This document shows positions 28,613 through 48,920 of a stretch of 64,000 nucleotides of DNA, piece by piece. This DNA comes from a virus. The notes beneath the pieces were generated by a model. That model was not told the origin of the DNA. It saw only the letters and a program-made list of their open reading frames with translations, and ran no database searches. The position numbers and the translations under genes are program-made. Numbering within the stretch: position 1 is the first letter of the stretch; each line of letters begins with the position of its first letter. Location: IMG/VR virus record IMGVR_UViG_3300047157_000174, positions 32,095-96,094 of that record; one strand, 5' to 3'.

Positions 28613-28681
28613 ACAAACCATTCCTAATTAATAACGCTACTAGTTCTTCTCTTAATAAAGTTTTAAGTTCTGCTTTCATAT

Positions 28682-28845: not shown

Positions 28846-29169
28846 TCAATAATAATCCCACGCTAAGTATTTTCTTGTTAACTTACCTCTTTTATCGAAC
28901 TTATAAGTAGCAACTGTATATTCTGGAATAGGTTCACCATCATCTATACCAACATCAAGATAATATGCCTCATCTTCATCAAGATAACTTATATCAAGAA
29001 TGTAGTCTTTTAATTCATCTACATCATAACTTTTTTCCCTTAATTCTTCTAATTTGGTTTCATTGTAATCATCTTCGCCAAATATATGTTGATTAAAGAA
29101 ATCATCTACTGCTTTATCTAATTTCTTCGGATGCAATCTTTTTATTTTTAGTATATCTTCCCAACTCAT
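28846..29169 (-). CDS. W-tag hypothetical protein (MSWEDILK)
   Basis: ORF with SD and shared N-terminal motif. Confidence 0.7.
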   Translation of the reverse strand: MSWEDILKIKRLHPKKLDKAVDDFFNQHIFGEDDYNETKLEELREKSYDVDELKDYILDISYLDEDEAYYLDVGIDDGEPIPEYTVATYKFDKRGKLTRKYLAWDYY

Positions 29170-29185
29170 TCTAAATCACTCCACA

Positions 29186-29455
29186 TTACCTAATCTGACT
29201 TTTATTGATACCTACACCTCTGACGGTGAATTTCGCTGTCTCTCTAGGTCTATCTTTTGTTCCCATTAGACATCTAACAAAAATAGGCAGGTCAAAACCA
29301 AGAACAGGTTGTGAGGAAGAGGAATAAATAACGTCGGATTTAACACCAAACTTCTCATCTATCATTTTCATGATATCTTCTAAATCCCCCTCTTCTCCTA
29401 TCAGTTCCTCTAACTCTGCCATTACATCTTTCTTTAGTATATCTTCCCAACTCAT
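29186..29455 (-). CDS. W-tag hypothetical protein (MSWEDILK)
   Basis: ORF with shared N-terminal motif. Confidence 0.7.
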   Translation of the reverse strand: MSWEDILKKDVMAELEELIGEEGDLEDIMKMIDEKFGVKSDVIYSSSSQPVLGFDLPIFVRCLMGTKDRPRETAKFTVRGVGINKSQIR

Positions 29456-29778
29456 TCTAAATCCCCCTTACTCTTTGGATAAACCAAGTCTCGTATTTGC
29501 CGATACAAAGTTTCGTAATCTTTTCTAAGTTCTGCTGCTGATGAAACTATTTCTAGATTCTTTTCATCAAAGCCCTCGAACTTTTTTTGAAGTCTTTTAT
29601 CAGACTTAATTAAGTCTAATTTTTTCATCTCATCTAACAGGTCTGAAAGATGTGTCATCTCTTGACCCATGTATTCAGTAGGCTGAGTTTTTTGAAGAAG
29701 TTTCTTAAGTTTCTTCTTTTGTTTAGCATCAATTTTTTCTAAAATTGAAGGTGATTTTAGTATTTCTTTCCAACTCAT
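29452..29778 (-). CDS. W-tag hypothetical protein (MSWKEILK)
   Basis: Helical ORF with shared N-terminal motif. Confidence 0.7.
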   Translation of the reverse strand: MSWKEILKSPSILEKIDAKQKKKLKKLLQKTQPTEYMGQEMTHLSDLLDEMKKLDLIKSDKRLQKKFEGFDEKNLEIVSSAAELRKDYETLYRQIRDLVYPKSKGDLE

Positions 29779-29828
29779 ACTCAACCACTTTGTTTATCCG
29801 TTCCTACAACTAGTTTATCAAATTATCT

Positions 29829-31667
29829 TTATTCTTTATTTTTCTTAGAAGTAATGTTGTTGCCAAATGTTTTATCGGCAAGTTGCCTTGCTTCTTCCGA
29901 TGTTATCTTAGATTTAGATTTATATTTCTTTTTTCTTCGTCTATATTTACCTGTATCTAATTTTGGTAATTTTTTCCTAGCCTCTTTCTGTTCCTTATTA
30001 TTAGGTTTAATAGTAAATTTATCTCCATTTAACCGTCTTAATTTGGTCTCTTCTACTTCCTCCATATATTCATCAGAAGGAATAAATGAAGACAATTCTT
30101 TAGGGTCATATTCTTTTTTTGGTTTTCTTTCATTAGGCATTGTTTTATATTCTTCAACATTTATTCTTTCACCAAAAGGTCTAGGGGGAAGTTTAAGTTT
30201 TGTCTGTCTGAGTCCATAATCAGAAAGCCAATCTCTTCCAGTTCTTTCTAGTTCCTTTATGTCTTCTTGAGAAATGCTATCAAAGGTAAATTTGTCTTGA
30301 TGTATCTTCTTCTTCGGTGAGTTTGTTTGTTTAGGTTTAGTTTCTTTAAATTTAGTTCTTTGAGAATATTCTGCTTTATCTGAACCGAGTTTGAGTTTGT
30401 AAGGTAGTATATTTTTCTCAACAAGTTCGATGTATGTCTTCATTAAATTTTCTATTTCTTTATTTTGTACTTCTCTATCCTCGAAAAACTTTAAAGTTTT
30501 ATCTGAATATTCATCTGAATACTTATCTTCTTCGGACAAACCTTCTTTTTCTTTCAAAAAATCTCCAAGTGTTTTTGTTAATGATTCAAGTTTTTCCTTT
30601 ATATCCCTTTCAATGTTTTCCATTTCGGCATCTTGTTCAAAAATTCTTTTTACATCTTTTCCTTCTGAATTATCTGCAATACTATCAGAAATTCTATTTC
30701 TTAAATTTACATAAACTTCAAATTTATTTTCAACCTTTGTAAGATTTTTTATTTCAGCACTTATTTTTATAAGTTCTTCATTTATGTTCGCTTTAAAATC
30801 CTTTTCTCTTTGTTCAGCGTTTTCATCAACAACAAGGTTTCCCTCTCCCGATGGTGATTGTGTTCTTCTAAACGATTGAGGATTCTCTAGTTTTTTCTTG
30901 TATAGATTTCTTAATAAATCCATTTTTTCTTCCGGTAAGAATAGACTAGAATCAAGAACAACCCCCCTCGTACTCATATAGTCTAAATCTTTTTGTAAAT
31001 TACTAAGACTTCTAGCAGATATTCTATACGAAGGTACTTTACTTATCTTAGCCATAACGTCTAATGCATTATTCAAATACACAATTATTTCGAAATTAGA
31101 TTCTAATGTATCTTTAGCCTCAGATAATACCTTACTACCTTGCAATCTAGTGTCTTCTCTAATATCATCTTCCAAAATCGCAATTCTAGAAATTAATTCT
31201 AAAACTAAAAATTTATTTTCTGAATTGAACAGAATAGATATTTCAGAATCTTTCATAGCATCTAATAAAGATTCGGGATTCGATGTGCTTAATCTTTTAA
31301 TAATAGGTTTTAATTCTGTTAATTTAGAATCATATTTAAAATTAATATAATTATTGAATGCTTCTCTATTTGGGTTTTTAGTGGCATACTTATTTTTCTG
31401 TTTAATACCTAACTTTTTAAACAAACGATATAATTTTTTTTCATTGTTATCTCTGTCTGCTTCAATTAATTCACTATATCGTTTAGGTAGAATACCACCT
31501 CTTAAAAAATAATTATTTAAGTCTTTATACAAATTTCTAAGAAGTTTTTCTTTCTCTTCATCTAGAGAATCTTTGTTTAATATTTCCTTAAACAACCTTA
31601 GTTCTTTTTTTAATTTAGATTCTTTATCGTCCCTTTTTTTATTTTTTAAAATATCCATGAACGACAT
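29829..31667 (-). CDS. Large charged protein with tag variant (MSFMDILK)
   Basis: 612 aa, GGAGG SD, K/E-rich. Confidence 0.7.
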   Translation of the reverse strand: MSFMDILKNKKRDDKESKLKKELRLFKEILNKDSLDEEKEKLLRNLYKDLNNYFLRGGILPKRYSELIEADRDNNEKKLYRLFKKLGIKQKNKYATKNPNREAFNNYINFKYDSKLTELKPIIKRLSTSNPESLLDAMKDSEISILFNSENKFLVLELISRIAILEDDIREDTRLQGSKVLSEAKDTLESNFEIIVYLNNALDVMAKISKVPSYRISARSLSNLQKDLDYMSTRGVVLDSSLFLPEEKMDLLRNLYKKKLENPQSFRRTQSPSGEGNLVVDENAEQREKDFKANINEELIKISAEIKNLTKVENKFEVYVNLRNRISDSIADNSEGKDVKRIFEQDAEMENIERDIKEKLESLTKTLGDFLKEKEGLSEEDKYSDEYSDKTLKFFEDREVQNKEIENLMKTYIELVEKNILPYKLKLGSDKAEYSQRTKFKETKPKQTNSPKKKIHQDKFTFDSISQEDIKELERTGRDWLSDYGLRQTKLKLPPRPFGERINVEEYKTMPNERKPKKEYDPKELSSFIPSDEYMEEVEETKLRRLNGDKFTIKPNNKEQKEARKKLPKLDTGKYRRRKKKYKSKSKITSEEARQLADKTFGNNITSKKNKE

Positions 31668-31679
31668 AATCTAACCTCC

Positions 31680-31910
31680 TTAGAATGGTATATTTTCACT
31701 ACGCATATTCTTTCTTTTAGGAGTTATCATAACGTCAGGAATATTACTAGGTGCATCATCAGTTTTATTTTTTAATGTTGTACTTGGGTCAACACCTACA
31801 ACAGAATAATCCCTACTAATAGTAACATTATTCTTCTGCTCTGCACCTTCTTTAATTCTCGCTTGCTTTAATTCTCTTTCTAATTGTCTTACACTTTTTT
31901 CTTCACTCAT
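31680..31910 (-). CDS. Hypothetical protein
   Basis: GGTGA SD then MSEEKSVRQLE. Confidence 0.65.
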   Translation of the reverse strand: MSEEKSVRQLERELKQARIKEGAEQKNNVTISRDYSVVGVDPSTTLKNKTDDAPSNIPDVMITPKRKNMRSENIPF

Positions 31911-32079
31911 CTTTTTCACCTCTTACTTTTTTATTTCTAGCCATTATTTCTGCTAATAAATCTGCTTCGTTTTTCTTTGTTCTTTCTGCCGCTTCCTCAT
32001 CTTGGGGAAGTTTGGAAGCAGTAGTTGAAACTCTATCCATAGGAGTTTTATTTTTCTTGAATATATCTTTCCAACTCAT
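31903..32079 (-). CDS. W-tag small protein (MSWKDIFK, 58 aa)
   Basis: Manual translation MSWKDIFKKNKTPMDRV...GEKDE*, below the track length cutoff; preceded by the repeat. Confidence 0.65.
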   Translation of the reverse strand: MSWKDIFKKNKTPMDRVSTTASKLPQDEEAAERTKKNEADLLAEIMARNKKVRGEKDE

Positions 32080-32085
32080 TCTAAA

Positions 32086-32448
32086 TCACCTTCCATCTTT
32101 TCTTTCCGATGGAGGAACCATCTCCGGTGGATATTCATTAAAATGTTCCATATCATTCCATTCATTCTCTTCTATCTGTCGCTCAGACATTCCTTCATTT
32201 CTTGAATCTTCTAACATTTGTTCATATTGATTTCTTTCTTCTTGTGGAGTTTGTTCTCTACCCTTCTGATTCATCACATTGCGTGGTTGTTCATTTCCTG
32301 TTGCATTAATCATGTCTTGTATCTCTCTCCGTTTTTTGGTCTTTTGTCTTTCATTAGTAAAAGAAACTGGACTACCATTTACCTTTCTATTCAGACTTAA
32401 TTTTTTTCTTGTCGTATTTTTTCTTTTAACAATGTCAAACCAACTCAT
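32086..32448 (-). CDS. W-tag hypothetical protein (MSWFDIVK)
   Basis: ORF with shared motif and upstream repeat. Confidence 0.7.
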   Translation of the reverse strand: MSWFDIVKRKNTTRKKLSLNRKVNGSPVSFTNERQKTKKRREIQDMINATGNEQPRNVMNQKGREQTPQEERNQYEQMLEDSRNEGMSERQIEENEWNDMEHFNEYPPEMVPPSERKDGR

Positions 32449-32518
32449 TCTAAATCACCTGCTATTGGTAAATTCATTCCTACTTGCCACACTATTATAT
32501 CTGAAAATAATCTTAATT

Positions 32519-34196
32519 TCATCCTACTCTCCTCTCTGTTCTCTTATCCACATTTTGATTACCTGCATCTTTAGGTAATCCCTTAAATCTTTTATCCGGC
32601 CCAGTATTCATACTAGGTTTGTTTCTAGTCTTAGGTGGTTCATCAGATTTTACTTTTTCAGGTTGACCTGCTTCTGCTAAACTAGGTTTAGTTCCCGCTT
32701 CCATCATTTGACCTAATTGACTAGCATCAATATCTGTTCCCGCATATGGGTCTGTTTTAAAATCGTCATCACCAGTTTGAGTTTTTCCTTGCTCATCACC
32801 CTCAACAGGTTTGGGCTTAGTATAAATAAATCTACCTTCATCATCCATTTCTACTTCAAATCCTAAGTTCTTTAATTGACCTGCAATGTTAACTTCTATT
32901 TCTCTCTTTCGTAAAACTGCAATTTCATCTTCTTCTTCTGATGGAGGTAAGTTTAAGTTCCCAATCAGTTATTCCAAACTTGAGTTGTAACAAATGGAAA
33001 CACATAATTATTCCAAATAGTTTGAGCCATTTCTACTGCTCTATTAGTAACAAGTATTTGCATACCTTCGTTATTTAATCCTCCACTAGCAGAAGCATCA
33101 GACATAAACACTTTACTAACTCCATAGAAACCCTGAAATCCTATCTCTCAAATCATCTTTAACAGAAATATAGTCCATTTCTTTTAGACTGTCCATAAAC
33201 TTAACCCATTCAATAGAACCCTTACCATTTTCTGCTTCTATTCCCATTACAGGAATAAAGTGTGGGTCTTGTTCCATCTTTTCTTTAACGCCTCTCCAAA
33301 ATGATTTCATAGAATCAATGTTTCTTGTTTGAACAGCCAATAATCCTCTTCGGCATTCTTGCCTTAGAATAAGAAGAATTGACATAATTTTCCATAGCCA
33401 ATAGTGTTGTAATATGATTCCACAGTGTAATTATCGGAGACATCCCATACAAACGTGAAGGAGAATATTTACTGAAATGTACTACTTCTCCCTTAACAAA
33501 ATACTGTTCCTCTCCATTCACTCTATTTACATAATGAACAGGATATAATTCCGAACTACAAGTTTCACATAATTCAGTTTGATGTTGATGTACTCTATCT
33601 CGATGCCTTAAACACACAAATCCGCCTTTACCTCTTTCACCTAATTCATTTGAATAAATATGCATAGTAACAGGGTCTCCTCTGAACACTTCTTTTATTC
33701 GATGCATTCTAACTTTAGAGTTATTATCTAAATAATATTCCTTTACTAATACTAAGTAAGCATCGTCCATTATGTTCAAATCGTCTTCTAATTCTTTAAG
33801 AACATCAATAAATAATTGCTCTGAACAATTAACATATCCATCTAAAAACTTTTTAGCGTATTCTAATTGTTTTGGGTCGGGTTTCTTTAAGTTAGTAGAA
33901 GAACAATCAGAACACATCTTTACTGGTGAAGAGTGTTCTTTACCACAATCTTGACATTTAACTACGAACTTTTCCTCCCAAGTATATCCCCTTCTAAATA
34001 TTTCTTGTTTTAATTGAGTAATACAAGTTCTAACAATAGTGGATTGTTGTACTATGTGGTAAATAATAGGACTTGTCAAAAGATAAGAATTATCTCTTTC
34101 TTGTATTCCCAAATTGTAAACTGTTCTATCAGCAGGTTTAGGAGTGCTATTTCTGAACAAATTAGTGAAGGCAAATCTTCTTTTTTCTTCCGCCAT
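32519..34196 (-). CDS. Portal protein, broken by about 4 single-base insertions
   Basis: Portal motifs (DDAYL, GEVVHF, LYGMSPI, ARMP-RGLL, ISGF-YGVS, SGGLNNEG) continue across ORFs 33315-34196, 33116-33385 and 32519-32848. Removing 4 nt gives 1674 nt = 558 codons. Confidence 0.85.
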
Positions 34197-35521
34197 TAAG
34201 CAATCACTCCTTCTAATTTATCCATCTCAAACATTTTACATTTATCATGCAGTTTAGCGACAGTAGTAATATCTATTCCATCTTTAGAAAAGTCATAGCC
34301 AACATGGTCTTTATGATTTTCATATTTCATCAATTGAAATAATTCAGTTTTCCTTTCATTATACCATTCTGCTTTTTTATAGGATTTTTTCATTCTTAAT
34401 AACTCCAATAATATATCTGCGTTTTTCCCTTTCATTTTAAAATGTGGGCGACATTTCGTTAATAGTTCTACAACATCATCGTGCGAATAAAAGTTTAACC
34501 TATTTACTGGCCTAGTGTCTTGTGGAGATTTTTGGTCTAAATGTAGTCTTCCACATCCTAATGATTTATGCATTTCCATCATAAATGCTTTTCCTCTCTC
34601 ACCCGTAGCCACTAATCCTACTCTCGGATTAAATTTTTTATCCATAGTAATATATCCATCAGAATCTATGAAAGCAGCAGTATAAGCATAAATATCCTTT
34701 TTAATATCATCACTAAACTTATAGAAAGCCCCGTTAACATTAGTAACATTGCAAGATATAGCCATTTTAGAAATTATACTTGGAGTAGTTTTATTGAATA
34801 GATTTTTAGGTAATCTTTCGTGAATCTGTCTAGCAGATATTCCCGATTCTTCACTAACTAATTTTGCAATATTATGTTTGATTATTTCCTTTTTGTCTAT
34901 ACTTTTCATATGTTTTTTAATTAATGCTTTGAAGGCTCTTTTGGATATTGACATCTCTTTAGACAGATTACAATATTCTTGATTATAATTTATAGTATTT
35001 CTATCTATTTTCGCTTCCCAATATTTACACAATGTATCTACCATTTCTCTTCTTGTATTTTCATCATCTACATATGATAGTTTGATTAGTTGGTCTTCGC
35101 TACAAGTCATATCTTGTACTTGAGGTTTATATTTACTTAACCAATAAATATTATCAATACTATTTTCTAAATGATTAGCGTAACCGTCAATTAAATTATC
35201 AATTGATTTTGACATTTGTATTCTATCTTCTCCTTTCAGAGTTCTTCTATACTTACGCATTTTTTTAACCATCTTAGGGATATCTGTTCCTTCGACTTCA
35301 TATTTTTTAAGTTTATATTCAAGATGTTTTCTTGCATCTGTTAAAGATAAATCAAACTCTTTAGCAAATGTTTTTTCCAATTGAGTATGGTCTGATATAG
35401 AAGAATCAACTAACCAACTTCTCTTCAAATCTTCTGTTATTCTTTTTTGTTGTTCTTCGAGGGATTCTTCTTCATCGGCAAGGTCTCCGAGTTCTCTTAA
35501 TTTGTCTCCCTTTTCACTAAT
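34196..35521 (-). CDS. LAGLIDADG-domain protein with N-terminal helical and HTH region
   Basis: AYTAAFIDSDGYI and LGCGRL motifs; GISARQIHERL HTH. The frame is open upstream to an ATT at 35521 preceded by GGAGGTGA. Confidence 0.75.
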   Translation of the reverse strand: MSEKGDKLRELGDLADEEESLEEQQKRITEDLKRSWLVDSSISDHTQLEKTFAKEFDLSLTDARKHLEYKLKKYEVEGTDIPKMVKKMRKYRRTLKGEDRIQMSKSIDNLIDGYANHLENSIDNIYWLSKYKPQVQDMTCSEDQLIKLSYVDDENTRREMVDTLCKYWEAKIDRNTINYNQEYCNLSKEMSISKRAFKALIKKHMKSIDKKEIIKHNIAKLVSEESGISARQIHERLPKNLFNKTTPSIISKMAISCNVTNVNGAFYKFSDDIKKDIYAYTAAFIDSDGYITMDKKFNPRVGLVATGERGKAFMMEMHKSLGCGRLHLDQKSPQDTRPVNRLNFYSHDDVVELLTKCRPHFKMKGKNADILLELLRMKKSYKKAEWYNERKTELFQLMKYENHKDHVGYDFSKDGIDITTVAKLHDKCKMFEMDKLEGVIA

Positions 35522-35544
35522 ACTCTCACCTCCGCTACTTGCCT

Positions 35545-36978: not shown

Positions 36979-36979
36979 A

Positions 36980-37570: not shown

Positions 37571-37574
37571 AATA

Positions 37575-40265
37575 TCACCTAAAGTTAGCCTTTAAGAAAT
37601 ATACACTTTCTTTAGGAACTCCATGTTTAATCCCTATTTCTCCAAAAGAATCTACTTCATTAACAATAGAACTTATTTCATAGGCCGAAACATCTACATT
37701 ATAATCACTCTTCATTATATCAATAGCAGCATTAACATGGTTAAAATTACTTAAACTAGAAGTATTGTAATAAATAGGTTTACCAACCATCTTCCTTATG
37801 TTATCGTGAGCCTCTAACATTTTTGCAACTACATCTTCTTGTTTATTTCTTAATGATTCAACAATATCTACAAACTCATAGATAATAGAACTGCGCCCGC
37901 CTTGACTATCCATTTGTTCTAGAGAACCTCTATTATTATATATCTCTTTAATAATATAATTTAAGGGGTATATTTTATTTTGATTATATTTTTCAGCCCA
38001 TTCTTTAGGAGTTTTTCCGTTACTATTAGGAAACTTTCCCTGTGGATTTTTTTTACTCTCTTCCGCCCATATTTTATAATCATCCATTAAATTATTTTTA
38101 GTCAATATATTATGTAAAATATTACCAAACTCTTCATTTACCCCTTCTTTAGTTATCTTATCCCTTCTATCTAAATTTGCTATTCGTATTACTAAATTTC
38201 TACCTTCTTTAATTCCATCAACTAATTTTCTAATATTTTGTATTTTACTTGGGGTGGAAATGAAGGTTAAATATGCTGTCAACTCTTTAATATGTCTCGG
38301 TTCATATTTAGTATATCCTTTAGTTTTATCTTCGGACATCACATACGAAAATACTGATTCATTAGGATTATGACTTTCTATTATTCTAAATATTCTTTTT
38401 TCAAGTCCATCTACATCTAAACCAAAATTATCATCAAAGGGCAAATTTGTAGAATACATTGGAGTTATGAAGAAGTTACTAACTTCTATTAACAACTCGT
38501 CCAGTTCTTCTTTTACATTTTCTAATTTCTCATATTCATTTTCACTAGCAACATTCCCTAGATTTTCTATTACAGGTCTAATTAATTCACTAGTCTGCGT
38601 TGGGTCTCCACCCTTACCTCCGTATGGTTTTGTTCCGGTTTTAGAAGGCGCTACACTTTTGAAATCATCAGGCTCAAACAATTTAGAAAAGGCTTTCAAG
38701 AAGCCTATAATATATTTGATATTTTTATCAGACCCTTTTCCTTCTCCTTGTACTAATTTAGACATAGTTGTTTTTGTTAGTGGGAGGAAGTATTTTCCGT
38801 CTTCACTTACATCAGATGCTAACTCCTTAAGTCGTTTTATGTATTCAATAATTTCAAAATCTATATTAGTATTCATAGCGGCTTCATATTTTTCACCTTC
38901 TATTAATAATAATTTTTCTAATCTTTTTACTTCTGTTTCAAAAACAGGGGTAGGTTCTTTAAACGCCTTATCATTATATTCTACATAATAAATCGGGTCA
39001 ACTTCAATTTTTTCTATTCCATCTAATACTCTTCCTAAAGTTATTAATCGCTGTTGGTCTAACTTACCCTTACCTTGACTAGAAGAAACCTCTTCTGTTA
39101 TACCTGTCCTTTCATCGTCTTTCCCGTAAGTATTTACAGTTATACTTCCACCATCAGATTCATTTTCAAATTCTTTTTCTGCTTGAACTAACAAACCGTT
39201 TTCATCTAAAATGTTATTAAAAAGAGCAACGTGTTTGTTGGCTTTCTTGTGTGATTCTACTTGCATAGGTTTGAAAGCACGAATATAATTCAACTCACCA
39301 TTGGTAATTTCATTTGAATAAGATTTCAAATCTTTAATAGCGTCTTTCAAATCCCCTTCAATTCCTTCAATCCCTTCTATTGCAGAAATAAAATCTAAAT
39401 ATGCTTTTTCAAAATCTTTATATTCACCGTGTTTCTCTTTCCAAAAAGCATAAACATCCTTTCTATTTTGTAATGATTTAAAATCCAAATCTCCGATAAT
39501 ATCCACTTTATCAATATTAATAGTAAAACGACCTCCCTTTTTTTCGTTTGAATATTGTCTTAGTATTTCTCTAATTGGTCGTAGAGTTGATTTTTCATCA
39601 GCATTTAAATTATCAATGGTAAGTAAATAATTATCTATTTGCGGTTGTGTTAAAGTGCCGCTACTTAATGAGGCAGTTTTTACATCCAATTTATTTTTAT
39701 TTGTAAATACATTTCTATATGTAAGTTTCCTACCTGCATAATCTTCAAACTTTCCAAGCATTTCATTTACATCTTTACTTTCATCAGTATATTCTTTTCT
39801 ATCCCGAAGAGTGGTAGTAGTTTCTAGACCTTTATCAGAAGAATATCTTCGAATAACTTCGGTAAGCATTTCTTCTATTTTATCCTCATAGTTTTCAATT
39901 CTATTACTTCCTTGCCCTAAACCTATGATACCATATTGTAAAGGAAGTGCTTTGGTTCTCATCATATTTTTTAGTCCCTTGACATTCCTATTAGTAAAAT
40001 TAACTCCATCTTCTTTAATTGTTTTTTTAATATACTCTCTTAACTCATTGTCCTTTTTAACTAATTTATGTAATCTACTTTTATCACTATAAATATCTGT
40101 CAGTATTTCTGATAATACTATTTTTTGTTCACTTGTAGGTAAAGAAGGATTTTTTTCTTCTATTATGTCTTTAATTTCAGGAATAATACTCTTGACCCCT
40201 TTTTCATGTTTAACAGCATCTTCAAAAAGCCGTTGTTTTTCATTTTCATTTTTAATATATTTCAT
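37575..40265 (-). CDS. Large hypothetical protein (896 aa)
   Basis: Long co-oriented ORF with no recognisable motif. Confidence 0.65.
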   Translation of the reverse strand: MKYIKNENEKQRLFEDAVKHEKGVKSIIPEIKDIIEEKNPSLPTSEQKIVLSEILTDIYSDKSRLHKLVKKDNELREYIKKTIKEDGVNFTNRNVKGLKNMMRTKALPLQYGIIGLGQGSNRIENYEDKIEEMLTEVIRRYSSDKGLETTTTLRDRKEYTDESKDVNEMLGKFEDYAGRKLTYRNVFTNKNKLDVKTASLSSGTLTQPQIDNYLLTIDNLNADEKSTLRPIREILRQYSNEKKGGRFTINIDKVDIIGDLDFKSLQNRKDVYAFWKEKHGEYKDFEKAYLDFISAIEGIEGIEGDLKDAIKDLKSYSNEITNGELNYIRAFKPMQVESHKKANKHVALFNNILDENGLLVQAEKEFENESDGGSITVNTYGKDDERTGITEEVSSSQGKGKLDQQRLITLGRVLDGIEKIEVDPIYYVEYNDKAFKEPTPVFETEVKRLEKLLLIEGEKYEAAMNTNIDFEIIEYIKRLKELASDVSEDGKYFLPLTKTTMSKLVQGEGKGSDKNIKYIIGFLKAFSKLFEPDDFKSVAPSKTGTKPYGGKGGDPTQTSELIRPVIENLGNVASENEYEKLENVKEELDELLIEVSNFFITPMYSTNLPFDDNFGLDVDGLEKRIFRIIESHNPNESVFSYVMSEDKTKGYTKYEPRHIKELTAYLTFISTPSKIQNIRKLVDGIKEGRNLVIRIANLDRRDKITKEGVNEEFGNILHNILTKNNLMDDYKIWAEESKKNPQGKFPNSNGKTPKEWAEKYNQNKIYPLNYIIKEIYNNRGSLEQMDSQGGRSSIIYEFVDIVESLRNKQEDVVAKMLEAHDNIRKMVGKPIYYNTSSLSNFNHVNAAIDIMKSDYNVDVSAYEISSIVNEVDSFGEIGIKHGVPKESVYFLKANFR

Positions 40266-42649
40266 TCAAACAACCCCTTTCCTTTAAGCCATGTCAAAGG
40301 CTCAAACCGAACCCCTTTTGTTCCACCAGTAGTCTTGCTTCTAAGAGTATTTTCTTCTAACGTTTGAATTACAGATTCTTGTATTTCTTTCAATAATGCT
40401 TTTCTCATATCATTATATCTAAGTAAAACCTGTCTTCTAAAATCTCTAAGAGGGGCTTCAGCATTTTCATCTGCATCTATTTTTTCATTTTTATTCTTAT
40501 CTATCTTATTGTATAAATCATTCAAATTTTTATTACCGTTTAAGTTACTATCTAACCCCTTACAAAACTTTGCAAATTTCTCAAATAACGTGGTAAAAAC
40601 ATATTCGTTAACTTCAATATCAGGAGTAGTCCCTGCCTCTTCTTCTTCATCAAGTTCTTGTTTTATTTTTGTAAGAAGTTGTTTAGGTTTAGATGCTATA
40701 CCTTTTCTTGGACTATAAACATCCCCACTTAATACCATACTTTCTAAAATAGTTTTTATATTTTTATGTGTTTCCTTCGGTAAAAAATCTTCAAGAACTT
40801 CGTCAACCTCCACAAAATAAATTCTGTCTATGGTATCCGGCAGAGGTATCTTTTTATCATTTTCTAATAATTCTATATAATACAAAATTGCATTCCTCAA
40901 ATCTTCTGAAATTGTAAGTGTACCGGAAAGAGACTCTTCTATTTCAGGTAATAAATCAAGAAGTCTAGTTTTAATATCTTGAGTGTCTTCATCATCTCTA
41001 TTCGAGGGTTTTATTATTTTATACCATTCTATATTTGAAACAGAACCTTTAGATTTTATTCTTTTATATTCATTCGTTAAGAAATCTATAATATCATCAT
41101 CCATATCAACATAAGACCTAATTCTATCTCTATCATTTAGTGATGCTAGTGTTTTTAATTTTTCTAAAACAACATTTGTTTTTACAGAAGTAGTTTCCGT
41201 TTTCAATATAGAATCAAGCACCGATTCTAATTCTTTACTGTTTTTATTATCGAAAAATATGTCAAATACTCTAATGTAAGAATCAAAATTTCCTATCTGA
41301 TACCTAAACCATTTACCTGTTCCCTTTAAAAATTTCAGTTGTTCTTGTTTTTTTGCTGATTTTGCACCCGAACGCATAACTTCATAAAAATATTCAATTA
41401 ATATTTCTTCATTTATTTTTCTATCTCTACTAATGGTCTTTGGTTTAGAAATAGTTTTCCTATCACCTGCAATAATTTGAGATTTTTGAGGTTTTCTTCT
41501 AAATTCAATATAGGGTTGTAGTTGAAGTACCTTAGCAATAGGAGTGCGATTAACACTTATTTTTTTTCCTGTTTTAAAATTTTCTATCATATCTAAATCT
41601 AAAGTTGTTTCTTTGGATTCATCTTCAAAACTAGGTAACTTAAAATTACTATCCAAAACAACACCCCCTGCGAATGGGAGTATTTGTTCTCTAGTTACAT
41701 ATTCAGGAAATCCTGTAAAACCAAAAGCAATTTTTCCGAAAGAGATTTCTTCTTCCAAATATTTACGAGATTTGGGGTCTTCGTCTTTTCTAGCCCTTTC
41801 TTTAGCCTTTCCTTTAGATTTTTTTGAACCTACTCGACCTACGCCACCTTCTCTTACTATTTTACTAGATAAAGTAGCAGTTATGTCCTTGCCTTCCATC
41901 ATCATTTTTCCATCTTTATTTTTGACAACGGGTATAACGGGTTTTAATTTTAATCCGCTATTATCTATAATACTATCAATTTCTTCACTATCAACAGGTA
42001 AAACAATAATAGTGCCTTTCTCTATTTTATATCCTACAACTTCGGGTTTTGAAAACGCTTCTGCATTGAGTAGTTTTTGTCTTGCGGATTTGTTGTTTTT
42101 TAAGAGAGAAGAAAAATTCTTTAATCTCTTTTCAATACCACTTTCATTAACTTCTTTTTTAGTTTCAACTAATTCTTTTTGGTGTTGAAACTTAAGTCTA
42201 TCAAAACTAATCTCCCCATTTAGATATTGAACCATCTTATCGTATTCTTCATCTTCATAGAGTTTCTTAATTATTTTACTATTTTCTATAATATTACCCT
42301 CTTTGTCTATACTTTTTATGATTGTTTCAATTTTAGAAAGTTTGTTCATAAAAGGACTAAGTTTACTTTTGTTTTCATAGACATTTTTAATGTTAAAGGG
42401 TTCTTCATTGAAATAATCCCCTCTAGGAATATTTCTATAATCCCTATCGTAGCCCTCTCTTAATCTTCTGTCCAATCTAGTAACTGCTTCCAGTATTTTT
42501 GGGATTGACATATTCTTTTTATTCACGAAATCCACAACACCTTCTTCTAACTTATCATCACTAAGAGAAAGTAATGCTCTAGCAACTTTTCTCATATCAT
42601 CAGAAAGTTGTTTTTTTCTAGGTGCTTTTAGAATATTTTGCCAACTCAT
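40262..42649 (-). CDS. Large W-tag protein (MSWQNILKA, 795 aa)
   Basis: Long ORF with shared N-terminal motif. Confidence 0.7.
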   Translation of the reverse strand: MSWQNILKAPRKKQLSDDMRKVARALLSLSDDKLEEGVVDFVNKKNMSIPKILEAVTRLDRRLREGYDRDYRNIPRGDYFNEEPFNIKNVYENKSKLSPFMNKLSKIETIIKSIDKEGNIIENSKIIKKLYEDEEYDKMVQYLNGEISFDRLKFQHQKELVETKKEVNESGIEKRLKNFSSLLKNNKSARQKLLNAEAFSKPEVVGYKIEKGTIIVLPVDSEEIDSIIDNSGLKLKPVIPVVKNKDGKMMMEGKDITATLSSKIVREGGVGRVGSKKSKGKAKERARKDEDPKSRKYLEEEISFGKIAFGFTGFPEYVTREQILPFAGGVVLDSNFKLPSFEDESKETTLDLDMIENFKTGKKISVNRTPIAKVLQLQPYIEFRRKPQKSQIIAGDRKTISKPKTISRDRKINEEILIEYFYEVMRSGAKSAKKQEQLKFLKGTGKWFRYQIGNFDSYIRVFDIFFDNKNSKELESVLDSILKTETTSVKTNVVLEKLKTLASLNDRDRIRSYVDMDDDIIDFLTNEYKRIKSKGSVSNIEWYKIIKPSNRDDEDTQDIKTRLLDLLPEIEESLSGTLTISEDLRNAILYYIELLENDKKIPLPDTIDRIYFVEVDEVLEDFLPKETHKNIKTILESMVLSGDVYSPRKGIASKPKQLLTKIKQELDEEEEAGTTPDIEVNEYVFTTLFEKFAKFCKGLDSNLNGNKNLNDLYNKIDKNKNEKIDADENAEAPLRDFRRQVLLRYNDMRKALLKEIQESVIQTLEENTLRSKTTGGTKGVRFEPLTWLKGKGLFE

Positions 42650-43302: not shown

Positions 43303-43313
43303 GTTATCACTTT

Positions 43314-43625
43314 TTATTGACTCCAAACTAATTCATATTCATCGGAATAATTGATTAGTTCCGATGGACTTAACTTTCCATATATATCGGGAGAATCTTC
43401 ATTAATTTTATCAATATCATCCTGTTCAAGTTTTGTTCCATCGGGCAATATAATATCAGTAACATAAACTCCAATTTCTCTCATATATGTTTCTCTTTGT
43501 CCGAAGGAAAACTCCCACTCAATTATTGCCTTTCCTTCATCCTCATAATCCACAGGTGTTCTAAATGCGAACCCATGCATTGCACTTTCCGGCTGTAAAC
43601 GTTTTACTATTTTTTCCCAACTCAT
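43314..43625 (-). CDS. W-tag hypothetical protein (MSWEKIVK)
   Basis: Start reassigned to ATG 43625 with a GGAG SD. Confidence 0.65.
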   Translation of the reverse strand: MSWEKIVKRLQPESAMHGFAFRTPVDYEDEGKAIIEWEFSFGQRETYMREIGVYVTDIILPDGTKLEQDDIDKINEDSPDIYGKLSPSELINYSDEYELVWSQ

Positions 43626-43703
43626 CTTAATACTCTCCACAATAACTACACATACAACAAGAATAATTATCCTCATCTATTTCCATATTACAACATTCTA
43701 ACA

Positions 43704-44861
43704 TTATGTCACCTTCAATATATCAGCCCAACTTCTAACGGGTTGGTTGAAACTAGTTTTTTTCTCTTCTGAAAAGTTTTTCAGTTTAACAGTATTGTCC
43801 TTTCTTCCTGTTTTTGGTAATTCATATTTTTGATTTTTCTCATCTAACAATATTACTGCCGCTTGATTTATTACACCACGACTTATTTTGAAATACCCTC
43901 TATTTACTGTAAGAGTTTCGGGTATTCCTAATGTTTGTCTAACTCTATCTTGGAAATCTTTTCTTCTTGGTATAGTCCACTCTTTTCCTAAAATCAAATC
44001 TCTAACCTTTTTATGTGGAAAATTACCTGCGGGAGTAGCCATGTTCGGGTTAAGATGAACTGTTATCAGTCTTCTAATACTGTTGATTTCTAATATTTTT
44101 TTAGCCCAACCTTTCTGTCCCTTTGTTCCTAATACAATAGGATTTTCTTCTGATGTCCCCAAAGGTTTTTCTAATTCTTCTATCGCTTGTTCTACAATTT
44201 CATGTAAACTTTTAGTATTTGCAATTTTAACTTCTCCACCCCTACCATAAATTACTTGCCAAAATGGAGGAGTTGATGTTCCCCTAGCACCATACCAAGA
44301 ACTAGGACACGCTGGCATAGGTGCTAATTCGGGTAATCCCTTTTCTCTACGTTTCATATTTTTGAACTCTCTTTTTTCCTGATAGTTGTCAGTACGATAG
44401 TGTCCGTATATTTCCTCTTCATTAACAACTTTACCACTTGTAGAATCTATTTCTTTATCAGTAAATAAAATATTTCTAGGGTTATTGTCATGTTCGTCAT
44501 CTGAATATTCATCCATCAATTCTTTAAGTTTAGTTAACTCATCAATTTCAGATATTTCTATTTCACCACCATCAATAATATTTCTAATCATTCTATCTAT
44601 TTCTACTCCGCCTTCATTCTGATTATTAGGCATTGGATTTCCCATCAACCTACCTGTTACTCCCTGTTTCAAAAACATCTGAAATAAATTAATTTCGTTA
44701 ACCATAAATACATCATCACCACTAACCTTTCCTAATGCAGAAGCCCATTCAGAATAGAGTTTTTCTAATCCTTCTAAATCAGGATTTCCTTCTAATACAG
44801 TACCGGAAGGAGTATTAATTAAAACACTATTTGTCTTTCCTAACTTTTCTTTTTTTGCCAC
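43704..44861 (-). CDS. Hypothetical protein with C-terminal tag (SWADILKVT)
   Basis: GTG start at 44861 with a GGAGGT SD. Confidence 0.7.
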   Translation of the reverse strand: MAKKEKLGKTNSVLINTPSGTVLEGNPDLEGLEKLYSEWASALGKVSGDDVFMVNEINLFQMFLKQGVTGRLMGNPMPNNQNEGGVEIDRMIRNIIDGGEIEISEIDELTKLKELMDEYSDDEHDNNPRNILFTDKEIDSTSGKVVNEEEIYGHYRTDNYQEKREFKNMKRREKGLPELAPMPACPSSWYGARGTSTPPFWQVIYGRGGEVKIANTKSLHEIVEQAIEELEKPLGTSEENPIVLGTKGQKGWAKKILEINSIRRLITVHLNPNMATPAGNFPHKKVRDLILGKEWTIPRRKDFQDRVRQTLGIPETLTVNRGYFKISRGVINQAAVILLDEKNQKYELPKTGRKDNTVKLKNFSEEKKTSFNQPVRSWADILKVT

Positions 44862-44988
44862 GTTTTTTACCTCCTTTTGATGAAATAGATTTATTGTTAA
44901 ATAAAGATGAAGTTCCACTATTACCAGTAGTAACAGCCCCCGCCATTCGTAGTATAGTAAACCATTTACTGTTAGGGATAGTTGCCAC
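44827..44988 (-). CDS. Small basic protein with tag (KWFTILR, 53 aa)
   Basis: Manual translation MATIPNSKWFTILRMAGAVTTG...KKRGKKRKVRKDK*. Confidence 0.5.
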   Translation of the reverse strand: MATIPNSKWFTILRMAGAVTTGNSGTSSLFNNKSISSKGGKKRGKKRKVRKDK

Positions 44989-45114
44989 TTGTCTAAGCGC
45001 AACAACAATTAGACTATGAATGTTTCACTAATTACTATTGTTTTTTATTTTTCCTAACTGCAACCCATACCCAAAATTCATTTGATAAAGTCCAAAAAAA
45101 TTTCTCTATTCTAT

Positions 45115-45447
45115 TCAAGAACCTTTTCTCCACTTCTTGTTTTTCTTTTCCTTAGTTTTACTAGGACTCCACTTTACTTTATCAGCCCAGTAAGCGGCAG
45201 ACATTTTACCACGTTTAATATTCTTAGCGTGTCTAGATTTGAATGCTTTTCTTTGTCCGGCAGTTTGATTAGTCTTTACTCCTTTTTGACCGAACCTAAT
45301 AGTTTTAACTTTATCTCCATCTTTTACAACAACAATGTGAGATTTAGTTTTGTGCTTAATTCTCTTAGGTTTACTAAAGCCACTCACACCTGCTCTTTTC
45401 AACGCAGGGTGTTTGCCCTTCTTTTTTAGAACATCAAACCAAGTCAT
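45115..45447 (-). CDS. W-tag basic protein of a widespread phage family
   Basis: MTWFDVLK, then VKTIRFGQKG..RKAFKSRH..SAAYWADKVKW, a motif recurrent in phage proteins. Confidence 0.7.
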   Translation of the reverse strand: MTWFDVLKKKGKHPALKRAGVSGFSKPKRIKHKTKSHIVVVKDGDKVKTIRFGQKGVKTNQTAGQRKAFKSRHAKNIKRGKMSAAYWADKVKWSPSKTKEKKNKKWRKGS

Positions 45448-45899: not shown

Positions 45900-45911
45900 T
45901 TTTATTCCTCT

Positions 45912-46433
45912 TTACTCTATTCTTTCAGAAGGTATGTTAAAATCGAAATCATCCACTTCTGATAAAGTTCCTAAATCTGTACTCAATTTACTTAAGTTAA
46001 TTTCTATTTGCAATAGGAGTTCTCTAATTGCATCATGGTCGTATTGATTGTCTTCGGTTTTAGGTGTATTATGCAAAGCCCTTCTTGTAACGTCAATACC
46101 CTCGATTAAAACATTTAAGTTTTTCATCATCTCTTTCATACTGCCCGCATCTATTTTTTGTTTTATTACAGTAGTTTCTTTACTTAGGTGTTTCAATGCC
46201 TTTTGGCTTAACTCATTAAAATGATACAGTTTTTTACTTTCTCCTTCAACGTGTTTACTACCACTCATAAGTGTTCCATCGGGATGTTTATGTGTATCTC
46301 CAATATACTGTTTTCCATCTTCAAAGAAATGTCTTTCACCCTTTCCTTTCTTTACTTCTACAACCATACCATAAGTTTTGCATGGGTCTTTTCCACAACC
46401 ACAATTTTTCTTAAGTATATTTTCCCAACTCAT
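45912..46433 (-). CDS. W-tag hypothetical protein (MSWENILK)
   Basis: CGCG..C and THKHPDGTLMSG..H motifs. Confidence 0.7.
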   Translation of the reverse strand: MSWENILKKNCGCGKDPCKTYGMVVEVKKGKGERHFFEDGKQYIGDTHKHPDGTLMSGSKHVEGESKKLYHFNELSQKALKHLSKETTVIKQKIDAGSMKEMMKNLNVLIEGIDVTRRALHNTPKTEDNQYDHDAIRELLLQIEINLSKLSTDLGTLSEVDDFDFNIPSERIE

Positions 46434-46438
46434 ACTAA

Positions 46439-46783
46439 TCACTTCTGCGAGAACTTCTTTCCGGTAGGAACGTGTTGTTTCCCCTTTTTAGTTCCTTCTC
46501 TTTTTTTCCTATCTTGATATTTCAATCTAGACTTAGAGGTTTTCTTGTAAGTTCCCTTTGGCATATACCTACCCTTAGTTTTAGACTTAGGAGTTTTGCC
46601 TTTTTCTTTTGCACTATGTTGTTCGGCACTACCCCACTCTTCATTAGTCCAATTCTGTAAATCTCTTTGTGCGGGTTTTAATGTTCCCTTATTTTTATTT
46701 CTTCTCTGTTTTTTCTTATAGGATTTAGCACCCTTTCTTCTTCGGGGTTTGTTTTTTTTCCTAATTACATCAAACCAATTCAT
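46439..46783 (-). CDS. W-tag basic protein, resembles the C-half of DUF5872
   Basis: MNWFDVIR; Q..L..WT.EEW...GRYMPK...RKKR.G...GKQHV. Confidence 0.65.
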   Translation of the reverse strand: MNWFDVIRKKNKPRRRKGAKSYKKKQRRNKNKGTLKPAQRDLQNWTNEEWGSAEQHSAKEKGKTPKSKTKGRYMPKGTYKKTSKSRLKYQDRKKREGTKKGKQHVPTGKKFSQK

Positions 46784-46784
46784 T

Positions 46785-47210
46785 TTATCGCCTTTCTATT
46801 TCTAACTTAACATTTGGAGTTCCAAACAAACCATCAATAATTCGCCTGTATGGTTTACGAATATAACTATTGTATGCAACAAAATCTATTAATTCTTGTA
46901 CGGAACTAAATTCTGTCTTAGTTAAATATTGTTCTATTTCTTCAGAATCCCACATAAAATGCCCCCCGTTAGAAAACGAATTACCATCCGGTCTTTTAGG
47001 AGAACCACGCTCATCATATTTTTTATATTGTAATCCTAATCTAGATGCTGTGTTTTTAATTTCTTCTTCAATTCCATTAGACCAAGCGATAGGAATATAA
47101 CCGATTGCTTTTTGTTGATTTGAATTAAACATATTTTCTAATTTATTTAGTTCATTTAGATTATGTTCTTTGTCGAACCTTGTATTTTTAATAACATCAA
47201 ACCAATTCAT
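46785..47210 (-). CDS. W-tag hypothetical protein (MNWFDVIK)
   Basis: ORF with shared motif. Confidence 0.7.
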   Translation of the reverse strand: MNWFDVIKNTRFDKEHNLNELNKLENMFNSNQQKAIGYIPIAWSNGIEEEIKNTASRLGLQYKKYDERGSPKRPDGNSFSNGGHFMWDSEEIEQYLTKTEFSSVQELIDFVAYNSYIRKPYRRIIDGLFGTPNVKLEIERR

Positions 47211-47484
47211 AATCCCCTCTCGGATTTAACCAATCTCTTTTCTTACCTTCTGCTGTAATTTCATGCCAAATGTAGCCATTAACTGTTCCTATATTATCTC
47301 CAATCCATTCTAATAATTCATCTTCAATATCTTCTTGTGTAAAATCTTCTTCAATACCTAATTCTTTAGCAGTAAGAAAAGCATTTACAGTAATATCCTC
47401 GTAGGGTTCATCTTCGGTGGAATAAGATTCGATTACAAAAACTCGTTCTTGTTTTTTAACAATTTCAAACCAACTACTAATCAC
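47197..47484 (-). CDS. W-tag acidic protein (SWFEIVK)
   Basis: GTG at 47484 preceded by GGTGG. Confidence 0.65.
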   Translation of the reverse strand: MISSWFEIVKKQERVFVIESYSTEDEPYEDITVNAFLTAKELGIEEDFTQEDIEDELLEWIGDNIGTVNGYIWHEITAEGKKRDWLNPRGDYELV

Positions 47485-47680
47485 GATAACCACCACCTGC
47501 TTTTTTGTAAGCGGCTGCAAGCATCTGTGCTTTTCTTGCAGACCATTGACCTGCTGCTCCTCCTTTACTACCTGCCTTAATTCTTTGAAATTGTCTCTTT
47601 CTCATTTTTGGCTTAGTATAGTTACCTGCTGAATTAACAGTAGATTTCTTTTTCTTCTTAAGAACTTCAAACCAAGTCAT
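47477..47680 (-). CDS. W-tag basic protein, resembles the N-half of DUF5872
   Basis: MTWFEVLK; YTKP.MRKR...IKAG.KGG..GQWSARKAQMLA..YKKAGGGY. Confidence 0.7.
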   Translation of the reverse strand: MTWFEVLKKKKKSTVNSAGNYTKPKMRKRQFQRIKAGSKGGAAGQWSARKAQMLAAAYKKAGGGYRD

Positions 47681-48528
47681 CACAAACCTCTCCATTTTCT
47701 TTCTGCTTCTGACATTGGCCTATACGATTTAGCCCGCATTTCTATTAATCTGCCTAATTGTTCATCATCTTTTTTATTCCACTTAGTTCCTAAATCTCTA
47801 TGGTCTATTCCTAATTCATCATGAATAGTATATTTAGTTATATCTTTAGGTGCAACACCTCTACCTATGAGTTGGTTTATTATTGTCATTATTGTAGTTT
47901 CATCTTGCATTGGAATATCTGTACGCCTTAGTCCATCTTTCCATTTTTCATTATTTTGTTCTTTTGTTTCTGAAGGCATTAAACCGATAATACCTTCTAT
48001 TGCTTCGGGTGTAACTCCATGAATCACATCTAACGTTCTAAGGAATGAGTCTAATTCATAGGGCAAGTTCCATCCATATTCGTTTGCCATATCAATAAAC
48101 TCTTTACCCGATTGATTATATCGTCTATAAGATTCCAAATCTTGTTCTGCTCTTTTTTTCTCATTTTCTAAACGTGATAGTTCATCTCTGAATGGCCGCG
48201 CTTGTTTTTTATATTGTTCTTCAAAATCTCTAATTTTACTCATTTCAGTTTTTTCAGCAATAAGTTTTCTGTGATTATCCTTAAATGCCCTTTTCATATC
48301 TCTTATACTTATACTCAAATCATTATGTTGGTTTTCAAACGATTTCATTCTTTGCTCTATTTCGGGCAACTCTAACTCTGCATTATTTGCTATTATTTGT
48401 AAAAACGCATCTCTATTTTTATTTTCTAAATCAACCCTTTCTCTGCTATCATAGTCTCTTCGATTAAACCAAGACCAAGACCCATCTGAATTACGTACAT
48501 AATATTTCAAAATACTAAACCAATCCAT
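47680..48528 (-). CDS. W-tag coiled-coil protein (MDWFSILK)
   Basis: GGTGA SD and shared motif. Confidence 0.7.
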   Translation of the reverse strand: MDWFSILKYYVRNSDGSWSWFNRRDYDSRERVDLENKNRDAFLQIIANNAELELPEIEQRMKSFENQHNDLSISIRDMKRAFKDNHRKLIAEKTEMSKIRDFEEQYKKQARPFRDELSRLENEKKRAEQDLESYRRYNQSGKEFIDMANEYGWNLPYELDSFLRTLDVIHGVTPEAIEGIIGLMPSETKEQNNEKWKDGLRRTDIPMQDETTIMTIINQLIGRGVAPKDITKYTIHDELGIDHRDLGTKWNKKDDEQLGRLIEMRAKSYRPMSEAERKWRGL

Positions 48529-48674
48529 TTTATCACCAAACCTGTGGGTACTGAAATGTTTTACCTAATGAAAACTGAAAAATGGGCTGTAATTTTTTTA
48601 CCACTAGCGCGAATTTTAATTTTAAGTAGTATCCATAACCAGAATAAGAATAATACTTTAACATTTTTTAACAC

Positions 48675-48920
48675 CTAGAAAAGTTTTTTTTGTTTTGAAT
48701 TAGGCTTAATTTTATTAGCACTAGCAGGTTTGCTAGGTTTAGGCTTACGATTAAAATTAAGGTGTTTAATAGGTTTACCTTTATCATCCACAGCGACAGA
48801 AGCCCCGTCAGTTAATTCTTTAGGCAATTTTGTTTGTTTTGTATTCTTTTTATTCATTGGATTTTTATTATTATTTTCGTCCTTTATTATGCTAAACCAA
48901 ATAGGGTCAGCAGACGACAT
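48675..48920 (-). CDS. Small basic protein with tag (IWFSIIK)
   Basis: ATG 48920 (MSSADPIWFSIIKD) with an AT-rich TATA-like box about 23 nt upstream. Confidence 0.55.
   Translation of the reverse strand: MSSADPIWFSIIKDENNNKNPMNKKNTKQTKLPKELTDGASVAVDDKGKPIKHLNFNRKPKPSKPASANKIKPNSKQKKLF

Follow-up and report, generated by a model that had tools for sequence, protein, structure and literature searches.

The minus strand of the final 64 kb of a 96,094-bp virus contig (IMG/VR record IMGVR_UViG_3300047157_000174, positions 32,095 to 96,094; this whole 64,000-nt stretch is referred to as the window) carries about 18 otherwise unrelated open reading frames (ORFs) that share a short N-terminal tag of 8 residues with the consensus M-[STND]-W-x-[DEN]-[IV]-[LIV]-K (Table 1). 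Read from 49 kb downwards, this strand encodes a block of small genes, the large terminase (35545-36978), an HNH endonuclease, the portal, further small genes, and an 869-amino acid (aa) protein with a ligase domain. Beyond the latter follow an S78 prohead protease-scaffold fusion, an SU10/halovirus-like major capsid protein (MCP), and the tail genes; a tail tube gene is encoded alongside terminase, portal, and prohead protease according to Pfam and PHROG. On the plus strand past 54 kb lie genes for a UvrD-type helicase, a DNA glycosylase, a TFIIB-type factor, and a ThiF/E1-like protein. Cultured relatives of the MCP are found only in the haloarchaeal siphoviruses HCTV-1, HVTV-1, and HCTV-5 and a few methanogen viruses, and IMG/VR holds more than 588 further relatives, many of them on marine contigs of 87-98 kb. 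Because of these MCP relatives and the TFIIB gene, the virus fits the magrovirus type as described by Philosof et al. (PMC5434244).

Table 1. Tagged genes of the window and the head genes and other features discussed with them (pI, isoelectric point).
Position	Strand	Feature	Remark
22910..24313	-	Major capsid protein (SU10/halovirus-like, HK97 class)	Pfam, PHROG (SU10_MCP, phrog_24667); presumed docking partner; N-A-L-L-K-[AS] conserved at residues 25-30
24326..25510	-	S78 prohead serine protease and coiled-coil scaffold fusion, 394 aa	Pfam, PHROG
28382..28621	-	79-aa protein, C-terminus M-A-W-E-D-I-H-E-L-V (28400-28429)	scaffold-type motif
28846..29169	-	107 aa, acidic, MSWEDILK start	7-member tagged cluster in relatives
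29186..29455	-	89 aa, MSWEDILK start	strict pattern
29452..29778	-	108 aa, MSWKEILK start	largest tagged family in relatives (45 members)
29829..31667	-	612 aa, Phe variant MSFMDILK	relaxed motif
31903..32079	-	58 aa, MSWKDIFK start	strict pattern
32086..32448	-	120 aa, MSWFDIVK start, then basic stretch	strict pattern
36980-37570		GNAT gene	beside terminase
40262..42649	-	795 aa, MSWQNILK start	strict pattern
43314..43625	-	103 aa, acidic, MSWEKIVK start	strict pattern
43704..45008	-	434-aa ORF, true start uncertain, ending in RSWADILKVT and stop	cargo-type motif at 43713-43730
44827..44988	-	53 aa, very basic, GTG start, KWFTILR at residues 8-14	irregular, weakest member
45115..45447	-	110 aa, pI 11.4, MTWFDVLK start	core is a widespread marine-phage family
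45444..45899	-	151 aa, pI 11.2, MTWFDVIK start, C-terminal CxxC..CxxC	strict pattern
45912..46433	-	173 aa, MSWENILK start	strict pattern
46439..46783	-	114 aa, pI 11, MNWFDVIR start	phrog_14910 covers residues 35-114 only
46785..47210	-	141 aa, MNWFDVIK start	strict pattern
47197..47481	-	93 aa, acidic, (I)SSWFEIVK start	irregular, without ATG; SSWFEIVK at 47472
47477..47680	-	67 aa, pI 11, MTWFEVLK start	phrog_17747 (E 2e-32) covers residues 8-66, directly after the tag
47680..48528	-	282 aa, MDWFSILK start	strict pattern
48675..48920	-	81 aa, MSSADPIWFSIIK, IWFSIIK after MSSADP (5 extra residues ahead of the motif)	irregular

All tag copies were verified by six-frame scans and translation, which bore out every N-terminus listed in the original prediction. 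The strict pattern ATGNNNTGGNNNNNNRTHNTNAAR (M-x-W-x-x-[IV]-h-K) matches 13 times in the window, always on the minus strand, against an expectation of 0.06 from 100 dinucleotide shuffles (largest shuffle count 1). In the relaxed form M-x-[WF]-x-x-[IV]-[ILVF]-[KR], the motif is the exact start of 15 ORFs, MSFMDILK and MNWFDVIR included, and 3 further irregular copies lie a few residues in from the N-terminus. One of these three, the 53-aa ORF with a GTG start, overlaps in a different frame with the 5' end of the 434-aa ORF, and another, of 93 aa, has a possible ATT start at 47479-47481 that straddles the stop of the upstream gene. The Phe variant recurs among relatives as MSFMDILK, MTFMDVLK, and MSFMNILK. 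Every tagged start is preceded by a strong Shine-Dalgarno (SD) sequence, GGAGG or GGTGA at -12 to -7. The tagged proteins of the window span 53 to 795 aa with pI values from 4.1 to 12, and none has a credible match in Pfam; a function search on the two largest (612 and 795 aa) and an 896-aa neighbour returned no match in Pfam, PHROG, PDB, or ESM Atlas.

All tag copies fall between 28.8 and 48.9 kb of the window on the minus strand, and the remaining 76 kb of the 96,094-bp genome contain no N-terminal copy, in line with the earlier claim that the motif is absent from the tail and plus-strand arm. The companion claim that the tags belong to a head and packaging arm stands in part: the tagged genes do share strand and region with the head-assembly genes, but the label is loose, as a ligase, an HNH endonuclease, and a GNAT are encoded there too.

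Among relatives, the tag shows the same strand preference. In 80 loci picked by their MCP alone (1.03 Mb), we found 127 tagged ORFs on the MCP strand and 2 on the opposite strand; the motif stood at index 2 (M-x-W) 96 times, and the internal matches come from conserved structural sites, of which the MCP and the ligase have one each. Each of 5 near-complete relatives carries 4-10 strict copies, with 33 on one strand, 0 on the other, and 0 for the reversed control pattern. When the first 12 residues were removed, 625 tagged proteins from IMG/VR relatives fell into about 300 BLAST clusters, and Pfam gave only single matches for 140 cluster representatives (PAP2, pentapeptide repeats, 2H-type phosphodiesterase, HsdM_N, and DEK_C). 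Some orthologs of the 108-aa protein carry a split tag, M-T-W-D-[FY]-Y-E-E-G-K-E-[FI]-x-[IL]-K, with 7 residues between W-D and I-L-K.

Retrieval by the DNA pattern that encodes the tag led back to the same viruses, as 84 of the 117 IMG/VR loci obtained in this way share at least 2 genes with this genome and the others are mostly short fragments or ORFan-rich stretches of ~95-kb contigs. The motif is not equally common in cellular genomes: across 596 Gb of prokaryote genomes, the pattern gave 36 scattered single matches, and since this is close to the ~26 expected by chance (estimated from the information content of the pattern), the tag is not a cellular feature. None of these matches lies in Poseidoniales, with the limit that a host motif written in other codons would escape the scan. 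Judged by these scans, magroviruses in general carry the tag, which is specific to them, and the magrovirus papers searched by keyword make no mention of it.

The tag behaves as a portable module at the protein level, as originally proposed: it heads some 300 unrelated clusters, it is prefixed to a protein family that is widespread without it, and PHROG profiles of tagged proteins start past it. The clearest case is the 110-aa protein, whose family comprises at least 7,990 matches of marine origin. Uncultured homologs at 75-80% identity start with M..KDPRLxRAGVSGF and have no tag, whereas magrovirus copies read MSWEDILK-RKKDPRL or MTWFDVLKKKGKHPAL, that is, a bare 8-residue tag prefix on an otherwise shared core. 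As a fusion made by nature, the tagged form of this bacterial-phage family hints indirectly that the tag may suffice to bring a foreign protein into the prohead. Untagged copies occur in bacterial podophages and siphophages (roseophage SIO1, Celeribacter phage P12053L, CRP phages, HMO-2011, and cyanophages; genomic contexts were taken from cultured phages only). The profile phrog_7595 begins at residue 10 of the 110-aa protein, and the PHROG profiles of two other tagged proteins likewise begin past the tag. In the structural model of the 110-aa protein (predicted local distance difference test score 66), the tag forms a detached low-confidence helix at residues 3-9. Of 65 family members, 61 match phrog_220, annotated as "minor head protein and DNA pilot," in their core, with a best E of 1e-9.

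As a side observation, the 110-aa protein is an unusually close gene common to an archaeal virus and bacteriophages (also at loci L198, L236, and L237). It shares 62-72% identity with proteins of bacterial marine phages infecting, e.g., Celeribacter and Lentibacter or known as roseophages, with the SIO1 match spanning only half of the protein, and 42-54% with those of cyanophages and HMO-2011.

Transmembrane helices were predicted in 1 of 111 tagged ORFs, as against 63 of 507 untagged ORFs matched for strand and size, and this scarcity rules out a secretion signal. Solubility of this kind is what cargo of a protein shell needs.

Relatives of the tag are also found at C-termini. The protease-scaffold fusion ends in N-M-T-W-D-D-V-H-S-L-V-R-G-N, with the tail starting at M382 (24335-24367), and this tail and the tag have an M-[ST]-W-x-[DE]-[IV] core in common; the resemblance to the scaffold C-terminus MTWDDVHSLV that had been pointed out earlier is therefore real, and the tail is conserved in homologs. 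It reads M-[ST]-W-x-D-[IVL]-H-x-L in all but 2 of 67 distinct close protease-scaffold homologs and persists as M-[ST]-W-x-[DE]-[IVL]-H-x-L in more distant lineages, to identities as low as about 30-40%. An alignment of 67 diverse homologs shows W384 to be invariant, as few residues outside the protease fold are, and M382 and H388 to be nearly so. In the AlphaFold 2 (AF2) model, the protease fold spans residues 22-172 and is followed by a linker that is acidic and disordered; a long helical hairpin occupies residues 284-362, and past a flexible stretch the chain closes with a short helix at 384-392, a predicted layout that is that of a scaffold with a docking tail.

In distant S78 protease-scaffold fusions (P0121-P0270), a tail of the form M-[ST]-[WYF]-x-[DE]-[IVL]-[HNE]-x-L recurs in many proteins; some have Tyr, Phe, or Leu for Trp, and some exceed 1000 aa. 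The scaffold tail may serve for docking throughout this protease-scaffold superfamily. For one of these proteases with Tyr in place of Trp (P0137), no relative was found in IMG/VR.

Two further proteins of the window end in such a motif. A 79-aa protein of the head module has a scaffold-type tail, which is present in the ~84 homologs listed, and it has no match in Pfam or PHROG. The 434-aa protein ends in a cargo-type motif, and all 6 orthologs with an aligned C-terminus keep it as W-x-[DN]-I-[LM]-K. Of the two C-terminal copies that the original prediction had named, only this one is genuine, since AWNILK of the GNAT is wrongly spaced (W-x-I-L-K), sits 17 residues away from the C-terminus, and is not conserved in the single ortholog that aligned. 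Going by the conserved copies, the motif works at either terminus.

These C-terminal copies bear directly on the idea that the tag merely tunes expression or stability, either as an enhancer of translation initiation or as a signal for N-terminal processing, acetylation, or an N-degron, possibly read by the GNAT encoded beside the terminase. The tag itself is strictly N-terminal in its carriers, with a small residue at position 2, A/T-rich codons, and a strong SD sequence ahead, all of which would suit such a role. However, the C-terminal copies together with the conserved Met where it is not a start codon rule out a role in translation initiation, and C-terminal copies are conserved in three families. 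Moreover, the Trp is invariant and the I/L/K pattern is kept although neither is needed for initiation, and synonymous drift in the tag is normal (see below). We therefore regard expression or stability tuning as very improbable.

The pattern of substitution indicates what is being conserved. Replacements within the tag are conservative (I/V, L/I/V/M, and K/R), and all six Leu codons are used. Measured within gene families on codon pairs encoding the same residue, synonymous differences amount to 0.417 in the tag versus 0.441 in the rest of the genes; this equality argues that there is no extra constraint at the DNA level and that selection acts on the peptide. Codon usage is nevertheless skewed at three positions, as Ser2 is AGT in 104 of 108 Ser codons (27% background), Ile6 is ATA in 77% (48% background), and Leu7 is CTA in 43% (18% background), whereas Asp5 and Lys8 codons are at background usage. 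DNA identity also reaches into the SD spacer at several starts, e.g., GGTGATTTAGA ATG AGT TGG. Both features fit a common descent of the tags through copies made of an SD-plus-tag cassette.

Taken further, these traces of DNA copying could mean that the shared start is a by-product of gene swapping, in which the SD sequence and the first eight codons serve as a recombination joint and the encoded peptide has little function. Against this speak the normal synonymous divergence and conservative residues of the tag, the background usage at Asp5 and Lys8, and the conservation of the peptide in three families at the C-terminus, a place without any gene-start joint. The AGT bias, too, is expected without a joint, as the barrier between AGY and TCN codons would hold Ser2 at AGT under selection for Ser. 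A joint without peptide function is hence quite unlikely in our view; recombination probably accounts for the spread of the tag, not for its maintenance.

In HK97, P22, 80alpha, and herpesviruses, the tails of scaffolds and proteases serve as capsid-docking elements, and for the tail of the HK97 protease, work by Duda from 2013 reportedly provides the docking precedent. Contacts between scaffold C-termini and the MCP N-arm have been described (PMC12749128). Capsid targeting is a reasonable inference for the magrovirus tag because its core matches the scaffold/protease tail, a known docking element in these other systems. By this analogy, we consider it on balance probable that the tag is a capsid-docking peptide copied from the scaffold tail, which draws a varying assortment of small, soluble accessory proteins into the procapsid. 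The docking label would have been copied from the C-terminal tail of the virus's own protease-scaffold protein, and tail and tag would both bind the capsid interior, i.e., the inner face of the MCP or the scaffold core, as in HK97, P22, 80alpha, and herpesviruses. A changing set of soluble accessory proteins would thereby be brought to the assembling procapsid and enter the next host along with the DNA. Highly basic cargo could coat the DNA, and cargo that is acidic or of no known type could have the host or its defences as target; the tag would reach new cargo genes by recombination with an SD-plus-tag cassette that is already present. The more sweeping claim that one universal 8-residue address code derived from the scaffold tail loads hundreds of fast-turnover ORFan families for co-injection is attractive, but we would place it just short of probable.

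The setting of the genes also speaks for capsid docking. The tagged block of 20 kb lies beside terminase, portal, protease, and MCP on one strand. HVTV-1 encodes a "head assembly" protein and a zeta-toxin protein of 1313 aa between its portal and its protease, a slot that is occupied by tagged genes here. These HVTV-1 proteins are of a kind known from other phages as large virion-borne proteins.

Several points weigh against capsid docking. Presence of the tagged proteins in the virions of this virus, whose host is uncultured, is a prediction, and capsid binding by the scaffold tail is assumed by analogy for this family. Past the fourth motif residue, cargo tags (W-x-D-I-L-K) depart systematically from scaffold tails (W-x-D-I-H-x-L-V), and the two may not use the same binding site. 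The 18 cargo species, two of them of 612 and 795 aa, are many for a capsid holding roughly 96 kb. The head module of the cultured halovirus relative HVTV-1 has no shared terminal tag. The tagged genes lie upstream of the terminase near a divergent control region, a position that also fits early host-takeover genes. Covariation of tail and tag across clades is uninformative, as both are too conserved (160 loci and 150 distant protease homologs).

The position near the control region and the divergence of tags and tails after W-x-D-I would also suit a tag that docks its carriers to a hub other than the capsid, the carriers being host-takeover proteins that are not packaged. Candidates for such a hub are the prohead protease (with the tag as substrate or degron), a virus chaperone, a ubiquitin-like/E1 system, or a host factor. 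The short amphipathic W/I/L face that the motif forms is typical of linear docking motifs in general, W-x-x-[IV] resembles the Atg8-interacting motif, the genome encodes a ThiF/E1-like protein, and the tagged block is hypervariable and rich in ORFans. However, outside the cargo the motif is conserved only in the protease-scaffold fusion and a small head-module protein, and this points to the procapsid. A domain of one tagged protein is related to minor head and DNA pilot proteins of phages, and the tags all lie on the structural strand, in the orientation of terminase and portal and in tight packing with them. A non-capsid hub thus seems unlikely to us.

The original prediction had further proposed that the prohead protease removes the tag after its Lys, based on the likeness of the tag's end, [IL]-[LIV]-K, to ALLK-A in the MCP and FTILK-S and FDILK-M in the protease. 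All of these sequences are present and conserved, but a likeness of three residues is weak, with 28 [IL]LK triplets among the about 20,000 residues of the window. FDILK (169-173) forms the last beta-strand of the protease fold inside the Pfam profile, and its conservation therefore needs no cleavage role. FTILK-S (17-22) is located in a disordered leader just ahead of the protease fold in the AF2 model, and N-A-L-L-K-[AS] is invariant in the MCP; both are candidate cleavage sites. In HK97, cleavage reportedly takes place at Lys103/Ser104. A cut after the tag Lys would leave an N-terminus close to that of untagged homologs. The same cut would not free the 434-aa protein from its C-terminal W-x-D-I-L-K, which counts against cleavage. 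The protease is a Peptidase_S78 of the HK97 gp4 type, not of the T4 gp21 type, and the tag is without L/I-x-E. The difference between cargo tags and scaffold tails could reflect cleavable and non-cleavable forms or different partners. Overall, clipping of the tag after Lys by the S78 protease appears doubtful.

Terminal peptides that address proteins to capsids are already known as a kind. The internal proteins IPII and IPIII of phage T4 carry a capsid-targeting sequence (CTS) of about 10 aa at the N-terminus (PMC9958956), DarB of phage P1 sets a precedent for capsid loading by an N-terminal signal (PMC9024508), and encapsulins use cargo-loading peptides (PMC8346489 and PMC8802124). Similar to the T4 CTS, the magrovirus tag is a short peptide at the extreme N-terminus of unrelated proteins, in 15 exact and 3 near-N-terminal copies, and T4 cargo likewise consists of small, nonessential, often basic proteins from variable loci that are delivered with the DNA, with a signal that is transferable in principle. 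Unlike the tag, the T4 CTS has a handful of carriers, compared to 4-18 per genome and about 300 families here, and its cleavage is by gp21 at L/I-x-E instead of involving an S78 protease; the two peptides share no sequence likeness. The magrovirus tag furthermore copies the scaffold/protease tail and occurs at C-termini too; targeting and cleavage, putative for the tag, have been demonstrated in T4.

The docking tails of HK97 gp4, P22, 80alpha, and herpesvirus scaffolds or proteases resemble the magrovirus scaffold tail in the core at the extreme C-terminus, the flexible linker, the short helix, and the invariance across distant homologs. There, the tail is limited to scaffold or protease, whereas here it recurs as an N-terminal prefix on hundreds of unrelated proteins. 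Encapsulin cargo peptides are portable terminal peptides as well, address diverse cargo from either end to the inside of an HK97-fold shell (addressing that we infer for the tag), and differ in belonging to a cellular, DNA-free compartment with one or few cargo types and another consensus. Encapsulins also have no terminase, portal, or tail, while this DNA-packaging tailed virus with its protease and scaffold encodes a terminase, a portal, a prohead protease, and a tail tube. Other N-terminal signals and propeptides of phages similarly load anti-defence or ejection proteins into heads, but they are longer (9-30 residues or more), specific to each protein, and without a consensus common to all cargo. 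What is new here is that a single consensus, probably derived from the scaffold tail, is common to hundreds of families and has its home in a group of archaeal viruses without cultured members.

Magroviruses belong to the archaeal viruses that are most abundant in the surface ocean; they cannot be grown, and most of their genes are of unknown function. If capsid docking holds true, the tag would be a marker of the injected effector set that can be read from sequence in an uncultivated virus group. Such an address label would class at least a fifth of the accessory genes as capsid-borne from their sequence and flag candidates for host takeover or anti-defence in a globally abundant virus-host pair (with Poseidoniales as hosts). 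It would also show a virus turning its own scaffold-docking tail into a general cargo signal, which links the CTS, scaffold tails, and encapsulin peptides. Such a natural plug-and-play system for filling an HK97-fold shell with cargo would form a bridge from viral scaffolds to the cargo loading of encapsulins, and it would supply a concrete pair of peptide and shell and a compact natural tag for loading HK97-type shells.

Further observations concern neighbouring genes on the minus strand. The portal gene (32949-34196) is broken, with at least 3 frame changes between 33397 and 32949, and portals of relatives have 545-556 aa; the broken frame reflects either indel errors of the assembly or a defective copy. 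The irregular tag starts at 47472 and 44964 may have the same cause. The 869-aa protein (25544-28153), located inside the head module directly upstream of the protease, has an ATP-dependent DNA ligase domain at residues 259-439 and is conserved, with 95 ORFs among the relatives' loci; a query with the ligase against genome contigs found no relative. Its N-terminal region has a conserved tag-like K-W-K-x-[TI]-V-K near residue 44, and this W-K-x-T-V-K was rejected as a tag copy because it is, though conserved, internal to a folded region. The 410-aa HNH-domain protein (34196-35428) between large terminase and portal is conserved in relatives, and HNH genes flank the terminase in HVTV-1 as well. 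A few genes upstream of the large terminase, a 226-aa protein without family match (42646-43326) has orthologs that begin with M-x-T-R-K-R-C-x-x-C-x-H-E-D-R, a zinc-ribbon-like N-terminus, and is by its sequence and position a possible small terminase subunit.

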